Source: Eledone cirrhosa (taxonomy: Eukaryota). Taken from it: a stretch of DNA of 64,000 nucleotides. Numbering within the stretch: position 1 is the stretch's first letter; every line of letters begins with the position of its first letter. The position numbers and the translations under genes are program-made. The notes beneath the pieces are model-generated. The model saw only the letters and a program-made list of their open reading frames with translations. It ran no database searches and was not told the origin of the DNA. The stretch covers positions 141,174,001-141,238,000 of the forward strand of contig OZ024741.1 of the NCBI GenBank assembly GCA_964016885.1, given 5' to 3'. Positions 5,311 through 46,182 of the stretch are shown piece after piece.

Positions 5311-5424
5311 CAGAGGTTATATTTAATTTTAAAAATGTTATAACTGATATAAAGCACTCAACATATTAGTGGAGTAAATATACAATATATTAATAAATGG
5401 AAACTATATTTATAAAACCATATT

Positions 5425-5490
5425 TATTTTAGTATACTTATTTCAAGGGCAACCAAGGCAAATTATGGTACGCTTTCATCAGATAAAATA
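5425..5490 (-). ncRNA. Type I hammerhead ribozyme, slightly decayed inverted copy
   Basis: Reverse complement reads TATTTTAT-CTGATGA-AAGCGTA...TGCCCTT-GAAA-TAAGTA-TA-CTAAAATA. Confidence 0.6.
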
Positions 5491-6688
5491 CAGATTTGTT
5501 TTATAAATAAATATTGACATACCCCGAAAACTTTTTAACTTTTTAACCTTTTAACTGTTTAACTTTATAACATTTAATCCTTAGAGTGATCTGAGTTCTT
5601 AGAAAATCACCTCTAACTTCCTTTACACTTCCTTACTGTCTTTATAATATAACTCAGTGGTTATTCTTTTGTAAACTCTCGTAAATTTTTCATAAATTTA
5701 GAATTATTTGGATGTTTAAAATTTGACTTACAACTTTTAATAAAATAAACTATATTAGTTTTGCTCTAATGTAAAATAATATATATATAGCAAGTAAATT
5801 TATGACTTCGTATAAAATAACATATGGTTCATGTTTTAATTATATTCTTAAGATAAACAAATTTTTTTACTTTTTAACTTTATAACATTTAATCCTTAGA
5901 GTCATCTGAGTTCTTAGAAAATCACTTCTAACTTCCTTTACACTTCCTTACTGTTTTTATAATATAACTAAGTGGTTATTCTTTTGTAAACTCTCGTAAA
6001 CTTTTCATAAATTTAGAATTATTTGGATGTTTAAATTTTGACTTACAACTTTTAATAAAATAAACTATAATAGTTTTGCTCTAATGTAAAATGATATATA
6101 TTTATTTAAATAATTTATAATCCTGAACATTTAAACTAATTATTAATATTAAATTATTAAATTAAATCCTAAATATTAAGGTAAATTTTAATCTTTAATT
6201 TTGATTTCTAATTTTTTATTTTAATTTAATTTTAATCTAATTTTTCAACCTATCATTATAAGTATTATAATCAAAACTTAATGAATCCTGCATTATAAAT
6301 ATTATTCTTCCACGTTATTCTCATTTCTTATCTCTTTTACTTACGCTGTTTATCTATTCATGCACTCTATTTTCACTATCAATATAATCGTTCTTTTTTT
6401 CCTCTTCTATCTTTCTCATTCCTTTTTCTTTCTTTTTTTCTTTTTTCTTTTTTTCCTTTTTCTCTCCCTCACATATCACCTTCTCTCTCCCTCACATATC
6501 ACCTTCTTCCAACAGTTTAATTTAAATAAATCGTTAACTTTTCAACCTTTCGGACACTCATTTGCTTACTCACTCATAATTTTGTATTACTCTCAATAAA
6601 TGTAATATCTCCACTATCCAGGAAGCTCCAACCGTTAAGATTGTCTTTTTTTCCGGGTATGTCAATATTTATTTATAAAACAAATCTG

Positions 6689-6754
6689 TATTTTATCTGA
6701 TGAAAGCGCACTATAATTTGCCTTGGTTGCCCTTGAAATATGTATAATAAAATA
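6689..6754 (+). ncRNA. Minimal type I hammerhead ribozyme
   Basis: TATTTTAT-CTGATGA-AAGCGCA...TGCCCTT-GAAA-TATGTA-TA-ATAAAATA. 8-bp stem I, stem II 6/7 paired, near-palindromic stem III. Confidence 0.75.
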
Positions 6755-8580
6755 AATATGGTTTTATAAATATAGTTTCCATTTATTAATATAATGTATA
6801 TATCTATATATATGTGTGTGTGTGTATATATATACACACATATATATATGTATGTATATATATATATATATATACACACAGACATATATATATATATATT
6901 CATATGTGTGTGTGTGTATGGGCGTGTCGGTATGTGCAACATCTTTCGCGGGCATGTTAGCTAGTACCCGAAAAACATACTACAATTTCGAACAGTAATA
7001 CATTCTAGCTGTTGTTTAGATCAAACTTTATAAATGGGCAGCTCTTCCATTTTAATCAGTCGTAAAAATATAACCGCATTTGATGCATTTGTGCCACTTC
7101 CTCTTTGATAATGCTGAAAAGAATTACATCCTCCGCAATTTGAATAGAAATAATGAACCAAGAACTTATTACATGAAAAAATGATGTAAAATTAAGACTA
7201 TTGTATTATTCATGTCATAGATGCAAGGTCACACATTTGTTGGAAGAGTGGGTTATTTCTCGTGAAAAAACAAGTCATTCCTAAGAGCATAGCATTTGCA
7301 TAGTCAGAAATCAAGCCTCGTTGTTCAGACTTTTGATAACCTGCATTCAAATCGCGATCATGATATTTTTTCTTTAATTTGTTTTAAGCTATGACGACAT
7401 TATACAGAATATGTTTGCTTCATCTTTTAAAGACGTTAGAATGTGATTTGATGTAAATTTACCAGTTATGGGTGGGGGAATACATGCTTCGTTATTTGAT
7501 CAGGCTCACTGCGTTGTTTAAACGACAATCGAACCCTTTTTTTTTTAAATATATATTCAAGGTATGTAAAGCCGGCAGATAGTATCAGCAATGAAAGGTT
7601 GATTAGAAATAATTATATAAGCCGATCTAACGATCGGCTCCTTTCCGTTAAAGATATGTATTCAAAGGATGTTAGACCGGCAGACAGTAACATCAATGGA
7701 GGAACACATGGGAATAGTCTGGTGATCGACCGCTTTCCTTTCGTTTTTCGTGTGAAACCCTAGATAATCATTCATTCCTTGCAGGATATTACTCATCTAA
7801 GCAAATGGATTTGTCTCGAGTAGTAGGAAATGCGCCTTATATATTGGAGCAGAACATTTAATTTATAACTCATATTTGGCATAGTTTTCTTCAGTTCTAA
7901 ACTCACTGGGACCGACGTAACCTCACTTTCATCTTAGATCGATGAAATAAGTAACATAGATATACTAAAATCGATTCACATCTCTCCTCTCAAAGCCAAG
8001 AAATCAATAATTACTGACGCACAACAGTTAGCTATTTTTGTATTCTGGATCAGTCTCTTTATGACGTATGTTGCAATGATTTCATTAGACAAGGATAGAA
8101 AGCAAACAAACAAATTATTCAGTTTGCGACAGTTCAATGTGATTAAAGCTCAAGACGAGATCATTGGGTTAAGTGAGTTTGAGTCAATGTTACATTGAAA
8201 CCAATATCACTATTTGTGTTTTATAGTTATTTTTTGTATAGATTCGATGACCAATATATGAATTGAATCCAGTAGCATCTGAACTTGACTGAAGATACAC
8301 AAACACATACACACTCATATGTACCGATTCACTTATGTATATATGTGCAAATAGACACATATCTGTACAGATATACAGAAACACTTACACACACAGTTGT
8401 ATCGAGTCACAAACATATCAGAACAGAAACACACGCACACGCACATATGCACACACAAATCTCTACAGATACACAAACGCGCATATATAAGTTATTCTGG
8501 GTTCAATCGGGGGGTAACCACAGTAAGTAAGGTACTCAATACATAGCAGAGTATAAATGTTTTAATATAGAAAAACTTCT

Positions 8581-8616
8581 TGAGAGATCATCAGGAAGCT
8601 TCCTGATGATTTCTCA
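8581..8616. repeat. 36-bp palindrome containing CTGATGA on both strands
   Basis: TGAGAGATCATCAGGAAG|CTTCCTGATGATTTCTCA, one mismatch, abutting a (CA)(TA)(GA) microsatellite. Confidence 0.7.
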
Positions 8617-8778
8617 CACACACACACATATATATACAGTATATATATATATATATATATATATATATATATATATATGAGAGAGAGAGATAGAGAGAGA
8701 GAGAGAGAGAGAGAGAGAGAGAGAGAGAGAGAGAGAGAGAGAGAGAGAGAGAGAGAGAGAGAGAGAGAGAGAGAGAGA
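8616..8778. repeat. Compound (CA)(TA)(GA) microsatellite
   Basis: Direct reading. Confidence 0.95.
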
Positions 8779-44648: not shown

Positions 44649-44859
44649 ATTTCACAAATGTTGTCAATAGAGACAGTCGGTTTCTAACATAGACACAAGA
44701 GACTCTCATTGGAATTTACACATCAACTAGGTAGATATGTATGCATGTCTGCATGCATGTGAGTGCAGGTATGGATGTTATTGTATGTTAGGATGTGGAT
44801 GTTTTGAGCTGTATTTGTACATGTGCATACGCTTTGTATCTGTACATTTGTATATGCAG

Positions 44860-45135
44860 TTATTATTTGCAAAAGTTTTAGAATGTTTTACATATTTTTA
44901 CTGTTCCATTTACTGGATTGTGCGTGTAATTTCCTAATTAGTTGTGTTCTTTCTGTTTCTGTGAAGCCTAGATTCTTAAGATTTGCATTGAGGCAGTTAG
45001 TAACATATCCGAGTGCCCGAATAATCACAGGCATAAATCTGAAGACATGATCAGTGTGGAGTATCTGCAGATTTCTCATTAGTGCTGCATAAATAATGTT
45101 CTCCTTTTCGCTAATCTTTGATATGATATTAGCGT
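44860..45135 (-). mobile_element. 3' fragment of an R4/Dong-like REL-endonuclease non-LTR element
   Basis: Translation DANIISKISEKEN..Y..LMRNLQIL....FRFMPVIIRALGYV matches the C-terminal REL motif P(V/I)IIGALG. Confidence 0.65.
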
Positions 45136-45247
45136 CTGTATGTATGTCTGTATGCATGTATGTATGTTTATATGAGTGGCCCAGCTTATGTTGTTGTCCA
45201 CAATGTATATGTATGTATATATATATATATATATATAGGAACAGGGT

Positions 45248-45335
45248 CAGGACTCCGACGACTGAGATCCGGCCGTTTCGACAGCTAGTCGGATCTAGCT
45301 ATTGAAACAGCCGGAGCTCAGCTGTTGGGGTCTTG
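45248..45335. repeat. Hairpin made of two inverted hammerhead 3' halves
   Basis: Plus strand: GAAA-CAGC...GCTG-TT-GGGGTC. Minus strand: GAAA-CGGC...GTCG-TC-GGAGTC. No CTGANGA. Same family as 2293-2395. Confidence 0.55.
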
Positions 45336-45861
45336 CAGAGAAAGCTTTAAGCGATACTGACCAACTCCATCTCACGCAACAAACATTAGGATATACCTAA
45401 GTATAATCCCAATTTAGTGTTTGGGGTGCTAACTATATAGTATTCCGTGGATAGGTGGTTGTATTATTTTTTATTTATTTTTTATGATTAAATAAATCTC
45501 TTTCCTTCCATACGATCGTTTCGTTATAAGATTTGTACAAGTTGGGATAAATAATCTCCAGGTTATGTATATATATATACGAGCTTTCTTCTATATTCTT
45601 GCTATTGTCTGGCGTCCTTCCCTCTCCCTTTCCTTTGTTTCTATATTCCAATGAAGCATTTGCCTCCGTAAAATTGAGATTTGTTCAAGCAGTTACTCAT
45701 TGACCATTTTTAGTTTATATTTTTCTCTTTTATTTCCATTTTATTTCTCTTATATTTTCTCTTGTGTATATGTATACATACATAGACTTATATATATATA
45801 TATATATATATATATATATATATATATATATATATATATATATATATATATATATATATAT

Positions 45862-46182
45862 ATATCACAGAAAAAAGAGAATCAGTGTTGCGACGAAAGG
45901 AATTTATCGGGCCAATTTATCGAGCGACCAGCTCGAGGCTCGATCGATTTGGTGATCAAACCTGACTCTGAAATCGTGCGGTCCTCGGATACGTCTCGAT
46001 TCTACGAAATTATAGGAAAATCTGCTTCGTAGAATCGAGACGTATCCGAGGACCGCGCGATTCCAGAGTCAGGTTTGATCACCACATCGATCGTGCCTCG
46101 AGCTTGTCGCCCGAGAAACAATTGTAATATGTCCAATAAATTCCTTTCCTCGCAACACTGTTTCCCTTTTTTTCTGTGATAT
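45862..46182. mobile_element. GC-rich fold-back element (~150-bp arms, ~17-bp loop)
   Basis: 45862-46009 is the reverse complement of 46026-46182. Directly follows (TA)n. The right arm has GAAA-CAATTG-TA (46115-46126) followed by AATAAA. Confidence 0.65.

Follow-up and report, generated by a model that had tools for sequence, protein, structure and literature searches.

We found that the inverted repeats in a 64,000-nucleotide stretch of the genome of the octopus Eledone cirrhosa (assembly GCA_964016885.1, contig OZ024741.1, positions 141,174,001 to 141,238,000; hereafter the window) are insertions into (TA)n tracts whose head-to-head form probably arose during integration, through two primings, one on each cut DNA end. 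Four are truncated Penelope-like elements of the Hydra clade and two are repeats without an open reading frame (ORF). Self-comparison of the window placed the inverted repeats at 5378-6801, 13192-13760, 13948-14426, 31778-32127, 34207-35325 and 45866-46178, and all six structures, labelled A to F in window order, showed the common fold-back architecture claimed for them in a preliminary description of this DNA. The boundaries given there were too short, since one arm per element has an additional tail of 26-140 nt (A, 5311-5377; B, to 13902; C, to 14546; D, to 32166; F, to 46258). A seventh element of similar build at 37433-37815, absent from that description, was added by our analysis as G. 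The elements, in window coordinates, are as follows.

Element A, 5311..6797: plus-strand arm with the short end; inverted minus-strand arm (5311-5530) with the long end, tail 5311-5377; 5′-truncated 3′ end of an autonomous Hydra-clade Penelope-like element
Element B, 13192..13902: left arm with the short end; right arm with the long end, tail ~140 nt; inverted 3′-end pair of a Hydra-type element
Element C, 13948..14546: plus-strand arm with a tail to 14546; 104-nt inverted arm with an atypical end site; internally deleted, 5′-truncated 3′ end of a Hydra-type element
Element D, 31778..32166: minus-strand arm (31778-32019) with the short end; plus-strand arm to 32166 with the long end, lacking a hammerhead; partial units of a 438-bp ORF-less tandem retrozyme
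Element E, 34207..35325: minus-strand arm with the long end, 2.5 units; plus-strand arm with the short end, 1.1 units; polarity switch at ~34975; 310-bp ORF-less tandem retrozyme
Element F, 45866..46258: left arm with the short end and a broken hammerhead; right arm with the long end, tail ~80 nt; inverted 3′-end pair of a Hydra-type element
Element G, 37433..37815: young inverted 3′-end pair of a canonical CxxC-type GIY-YIG Penelope-like element

Every family was found to possess two fixed 3′ ends downstream of its hammerhead cleavage site, lying 26-140 nt apart. When the classifiable inverted copies were tallied (n = 91), 85 combined one short with one long end, four had two short ends and two had two long ends, where independence predicts 45.5 short-long combinations (P ~3e-19). 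The pairing was seen in A (13/13), B (2/2, with one additional copy, in locus L351, that fits), C (7/7), D (21/25), E (11/11) and F (31/33). Within the window A, B, D, E, F and G follow it; C has an atypical left end. The lengths of the two arms were examined in F and E. Among 31 F copies the short-end arm reached further 5′ in 16 and the long-end arm in 12, with three ties, and four F long-end arms lay wholly inside the tail; in E the short-end arm was the longer one in 6 of 11 arrays. The combination of one short and one long end with independent arm lengths favours two coupled priming events over the folding back of a single cDNA.

For F we assembled 70 position-ordered insertions. Of these, 62 ran into TA at the 3′ end, compared with 3752 of 118802 background positions, in agreement with the proposed preference for (TA)n. 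In the window (TA)n adjoins the majority of the 12 ends; at B-left a short TA stretch is followed by a GA/CT tract, at D-left CA is followed by (TA)n, and E-right lacks a tract. Two arms were present in 42 of the 70 F copies, a lower bound as some junctions lie beyond the reference, and one arm in the other 28. Inversion junctions differed between copies in D, E and F, and therefore the fold-backs do not spread as units, contrary to what had been supposed; a new one is probably formed with every insertion. Overlaps of a few bases were seen at many F junctions. A considerable part of the F sample of 70 starts within a few bases of one point, at a 5′ truncation hotspot ~115 nt upstream of the cleavage site (window ~46012), which could be an RT (reverse transcriptase) stop, microhomology or a short sub-family.

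The origin of A, B, C and F was revealed by parent ORFs encoding RT and endonuclease, which support the suspected Penelope-type ancestry. These ORFs are homologous, so the four elements are not unrelated, as they had been called. Likewise "non-autonomous" applies to D and E and fails for the other four of the six families, whose ORFs lie contiguously upstream in other copies. The cognate autonomous elements were accordingly located elsewhere in the genome; within the 64 kb itself three Penelope-type ORF queries gave no match, as expected from the preliminary description. In this 3.0-Gb genome every family is repeated, with ~1800-2400 first-look candidates for A, B, C, D and F, a figure that is not a copy number, and 223 exact matches to an F 39-mer. 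The parent of A (locus L182/L225) has a 743-codon ORF flanked by 5′ and 3′ repeats, the former matching the window arm at 94% identity, and window A corresponds to the terminal repeat plus 3′ untranslated region of such an autonomous element. A related ORF was found upstream in 6 of 29 other C loci, with a near full-length but broken copy in locus L218 (see also L215-L217); a matching ORF end in 7 of the 20 F loci found with upstream DNA; and a match to the A ORF in 13 of 20 B loci, the B hammerhead being in view in 7 of those 13. Other neighbouring ORFs were rejected as parents, one near F (L303) and those beside D (L077, L079), as TA tracts lie between.

Placement of A, B, C and F in the Hydra clade follows from their motifs. 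The A and C ORFs have SDKT and the A ORF has RWR, observations confined to these two since the B and F ORFs were seen mainly C-terminally. Copies of all four carry a CxCX5C linker, CxxC and CxH, a GIY-YIG domain without CCHH, and a single cysteine between the GIY and YIG halves. The A frame, lying between two terminal repeats, has the single-ORF layout of RT followed by a C-terminal GIY-YIG. Pfam and PDB sequence searches of the A ORF against local copies returned no family; its protein-atlas look-alikes (score 0.96-0.98) carry HTH_animal, GIY-YIG and RVT_1, and most of its 89 homologues carry PF26215. All four families have a hammerhead in the terminal repeat and insert into (TA)n, as also reported for the Hydra clade (Craig et al. 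2021, PMC8557442). The tails of A (5311-5377), C (14460-14546) and F (46180-46258) have in common a predicted hairpin that lies immediately beyond the short end, between ACTC and GAGTGCT. It is missing from D and E and is a candidate protein-binding signal of the Hydra families.

Element E had been described as a fold-back like the rest. Its inverted structure is genuine, and it is in fact a tandem array with a switch of polarity, its 310-bp unit containing one type I hammerhead; a 43-mer of E has 4177 exact genome matches, in arrays. D, whose window copy is less than one unit, has a 438-bp unit that also bears one hammerhead and is tandem in several loci. Judged by sequence, both are non-LTR (long terminal repeat) retrozymes in the sense of Cervera and de la Pena 2020 (PMC7229834) and Li, Clavereau and Pollet 2026 (10.64898/2026.07.22.740005). 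Among the 13 E arrays inspected, 11 were two-armed and divergent, one was single and one abutted an assembly gap. The two-end rule suggests that unequal crossover at a later time is not the sole source of retrozyme arrays and that insertion itself builds them. In two arrays (L168b/L169 and L304) locus-private variants were common to both arms. The sequencing runs listed for the E unit were DNA runs, with no RNA run among them, and the unit was present at 96-100% of sampled words in DNA runs under four organism codes.

The observed components of the mechanism we favour are parent ORFs, two fixed 3′ ends, short-long pairing, variable junctions and independent arm lengths. In it, a dimeric RT/GIY-YIG protein would nick both strands of the self-complementary (TA)n target. 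One 3′-OH would prime at the outer RNA site, giving the long end with its tail, and the other at the inner site, giving the short end; the two cDNAs would stop independently and then be joined head to head at their truncated ends. Failure of one priming would leave a single arm, and on circular or multimeric D or E RNA each end could copy several units, generating back-to-back arrays. The hammerheads would be terminal-repeat passengers, under selection in active source elements, where their dimers would process multimeric RNA, and those in the inverted copies of the window are likely inert, as far as RNA folding predictions go. A Penelope-like protein studied in vitro cuts and extends both strands, uses two adjacent internal RNA start sites, which set the limits of the tail, and is a predicted dimer (Frangieh et al. 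2024, PMC11167929). Stated generally, Penelope-like insertion would be an obligately coupled asymmetric twin priming, in which one RT-endonuclease dimer directs each of the two nicked strands to a fixed RNA start site of its own; the rule would cover protein-free hammerhead circles as well as autonomous Hydra elements and would yield two-armed retrozyme arrays in one step. We regard this generalization as evenly poised between right and wrong.

Several points weigh against two coupled primings. Coupling is deduced from finished insertions, and start-site use was alike on the top and bottom strands in vitro (PMC11167929), a result that gives no reason for the two ends to choose different sites. 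Six classifiable copies break the rule (the four short-short and two long-long ones), and among seven inverted G copies, whose main arm was selected to be long, five were short-long and two long-long. Copies with an interrupted, deleted, atypical or unseen end were left out (nine F, three D, two B, one C, which is the window copy, and several A). The tallies for A to D were read by eye from BLAST-selected loci found with queries lacking the tail, only E and F being position-ordered. Two inverted arms end ~500 nt before the short site and, like the F hotspot, are not accounted for by the model, and in one E array a repeated seven-unit variant pattern indicates expansion after insertion.

The rival that survives best holds that both ends start at the same RNA site and that the tail asymmetry is made later, by endonuclease resolution or trimming of an intermediate. 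From this the pairing of one short with one long end follows directly; PMC8557442 ascribes the one-sided tail to endonuclease-mediated resolution, and the A, C and F tails begin with a similar AT-rich stretch and the predicted hairpin, a possible cleavage site. Yet both genomic ends were mapped to RT start sites in vitro (PMC11167929), and inverted arms consisting only of tail still require a separate priming. We consider trimming unlikely, while giving it more weight than any other alternative.

A somewhat less probable explanation, which we hold to be rather doubtful, is a single priming event, in which one cDNA folds back or self-primes, perhaps on an antisense template, and is then copied into the inverted arm. 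Head-to-head inversions with junction palindromes were interpreted in this way by Arkhipova et al. 2013 (PMC3846280), and the few-base overlaps at F junctions and the private variants common to both arms of E arrays would agree with it. A fold-back of a cDNA begun at the long site must, however, nest the short-end arm within the long-end arm. This fails in about half of the copies, namely the 16 of 31 in F and 6 of 11 in E with the further-reaching or longer short-end arm, and the four F long-end arms with no overlap; a cDNA started at the short site, in turn, has no tail to copy.

The preliminary description had favoured another view, that the fold-backs are non-autonomous and spread as units, that their palindromes are selected family codes for dimerisation, and that the hammerheads control read-through. 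Its hammerhead inventory was largely sound. A descriptor scan recovered six complete type I hammerheads whose core is exactly CTGANGA (6697+, 14361+, 35156+, 34710-, 34400- and 31949-), against a mean of 0.01 (maximum 1) in 100 block-wise dinucleotide shuffles, in line with the excess over shuffled DNA on which the claim depended. Inclusion of the variant or damaged copies A-left, C-left, B-left, B-right and F-right brought the count to 11, close to the "about ten" reported; the palindromes had been named correctly, and all arms read outward. Not every arm has a hammerhead: D has a single one and the left arm of F lacks the GAAA-palindrome-UH half. Rfam models gave 107 window matches at E<=1, none of them a hammerhead, and missed all 11 motifs. 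The motifs are listed below.

Hammerhead A-left, 5425..5490, minus strand: CTGATGA core; palindrome mutated (TAAGTA)
Hammerhead A-right, 6689..6754, plus strand: CTGATGA core; stem III TATGTA
Hammerhead B-left, 13251..13385, minus strand: CCGAAGA variant core; 100-nt stem II region; CGATCG
Hammerhead B-right, 13579..13701, plus strand: broken core (CCTAAGA); CGATCG
Hammerhead C-left, 13951..14021, minus strand: CTGATGA core; TGCGCA; stem II base mismatched
Hammerhead C-right, 14353..14423, plus strand: CTGATGA core; TGCGCA
Hammerhead D, 31908..31957, minus strand: CTGATGA core; CATTAGTG
Hammerhead E, 34362..34408, minus strand: CTGATGA core; CGCG
Hammerhead E, second tandem copy, 34672..34718, minus strand
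Hammerhead E, inverted arm, 35148..35194, plus strand
Hammerhead F-right, 46038..46134, plus strand: CCGAGGA variant core; CAATTG
Hammerhead-like motif of G, 37622-37675, plus strand: TTGAAAA core; CCGG; weak stem I

Selection on the RNA fold, also proposed there, was supported by stem III. In a motif-cluster scan of 1.37 Mb of fetched, partly overlapping DNA that left stem III unconstrained, this stem was palindromic in 15 of 22 motif clusters and in none of 26 matches in the reversed-sequence control. Stems I and II were set aside, because the scan selects for both and a covariation count across families would be circular, and only stem III was used. The functions assigned to the palindromes and to read-through fared worse. 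Five of seven palindrome types recurred in at least two motif clusters, indicating that palindromes track lineage and not family. Homodimer stems were predicted to be more stable than heterodimers, a preference that any two different palindromes give automatically, and dimers can form in cis inside tandem transcripts (PMC4209133, PMC6765202). Read-through would, in geometric terms, meet a ribozyme as claimed; folding of the full read-through RNA nonetheless predicted pairing of stem I with the antisense arm, and hence its absence (P ~0), for 9 of 11 motifs, only D and one E copy (E-left2) keeping it. Long double-stranded RNA from the fold-backs is plausible if they are transcribed. The dimerisation-code and read-through ideas accordingly have little support, and with parent ORFs in four of the six families and a separate junction in each copy we judge this whole view very improbable, even though D and E are indeed non-autonomous.

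Miniature inverted-repeat transposable elements with terminal inverted repeats, or assembly fold-back artefacts, might be suggested by the inverted arms, the TA flanks and the 99% identity of the E arms, and can be dismissed with near certainty, being refuted by the variable junctions and by parents that encode RT and GIY-YIG; the two arms of a copy are unequal in length and stop at different points, no fixed core is copied as a unit, 28 of 70 F copies are one-armed and the arms of the other elements are 82-96% identical (target-site duplications are not readable within (TA)n flanks).

Further observations concern the hammerheads and the neighbouring repeats. C at core position 4 was present in 8 of 9 distinct B motifs and at least 42 of 44 distinct F motifs, a variant fixed in widely spread families. 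Two 33-nt tandem copies at 57790-57858 contain CTGATGA without the GAAA half, and the fetched loci held another hammerhead group with a non-palindromic stem III of the CC-NNN-GG type (L306, L156, L162, L171, L296) and two further families with CTAG (L087, L135). Copies of G (L360-L384) are 98-100% identical, with a CxxC-type GIY-YIG parent in locus L363; in all five of its short ends seen, a (CT)n run precedes (TA)n, as if the terminal CTCT were reiterated at initiation or expanded later. At 39.0-42.1 kb on the plus strand lies a broken long interspersed element (LINE) with endonuclease and RT frames and an RVT_1 match, which we take to be RTE-like, preceded on the minus strand (38198-39001) by a fragment presumably resembling the restriction-like endonuclease of site-specific non-LTR elements, an assignment lacking Pfam support. 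A 190-nt repeat resembling a short interspersed element (SINE) has ~12 copies (4234, 14900, 22560, 27110, 29660, 30830, 32570, 36900, 43635, 47590, 56430 and 60520) and in other loci interrupts several B and D copies near their ends. Degenerate fold-backs at 58282-58643, 46947-47074 and 10033-10159 gave no hammerhead in the descriptor scan; the family of the one at 46947 recurs beside TA tracts in other loci.

How Penelope-like elements make tandem and inverted insertions is posed as an open question in PMC8557442 and PMC11167929. The one-short-one-long rule, observed in six families with thousands of young copies, can be put to the existing in vitro assay as a precise prediction and speaks against a single-cDNA fold-back. 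In the literature searched, which covered few subscription papers and no supplements, there was no relevant publication on the pairing rule or on two-armed retrozyme arrays, and none of the four papers listed for octopus Penelope hammerheads treated these subjects by title.

The elements themselves are ordinary members of described groups. Like A, B, C and F, the Hydra clade of Craig et al. (PMC8557442) has a single ORF with a C-terminal GIY-YIG, the CxCX5C, CxxC and CxH motifs, DKT (seen here in A and C) and no CCHH, and shares with the window elements the hammerheads, the (TA)n insertion, an inverted 5′-truncated copy and a tail at one end. In this comparison by features A differs in having RWR instead of RWK, 3′ untranslated regions are long (~1-2 kb), B and F have a CCGANGA core, and the clade is abundant here rather than represented by few families. 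D and E resemble animal non-LTR retrozymes (PMC7229834; 10.64898/2026.07.22.740005) as ORF-less tandem repeats with one type I hammerhead per unit, the 310 bp of E falling inside the reported range of 170-400 nt and the 438 bp of D slightly exceeding it. In contrast to those, the present arrays, known from DNA alone, are two-armed, and their ends lie within (TA)n at either of two fixed phases; this agrees better with an origin at insertion than with local amplification through unequal crossover, the process considered by Li et al.; the word "inverted" is absent from the main text of PMC7229834, as are "head-to-head" and "tail" from the preprint.

The in vitro system of Poseidon from Anolis (PMC11167929) likewise has two internal RT start sites downstream of the hammerhead that define the tail, cutting and extension of both strands, and AT-rich targets. 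No coupling of ends was reported there, whereas here 85 of 91 inverted copies use each site once; the tails of the present elements span 26-140 nt, and at several ends 2-8 TA bases are common to element and target. Minimal dimeric hammerheads (Cervera and de la Pena 2014, PMC4209133) also show a palindromic stem III, a high number of divergent families in each genome, paired motifs on opposite strands at distances of 100-700 bp, and the U3-A8 core variant seen in G. The present palindromes are longer (4-8 nt), stem II inserts reach 100 nt, and the C fixed at core position 4 in B and F has no mention in the part of that text compared. Penelope elements of Adineta vaga (PMC3846280) have head-to-head inverted terminal repeats with a tail on one, and AT-rich targets, as here; self-priming on an antisense template was favoured for them, while our arm-length data argue against single-cDNA copying. 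Collectively, inverted ends, the one-sided tail, (TA)n targeting and the palindromic stem III are already published (PMC8557442, PMC3846280, PMC4209133), and what this window adds is the two-end rule in four autonomous Hydra families together with the arm-nesting test.

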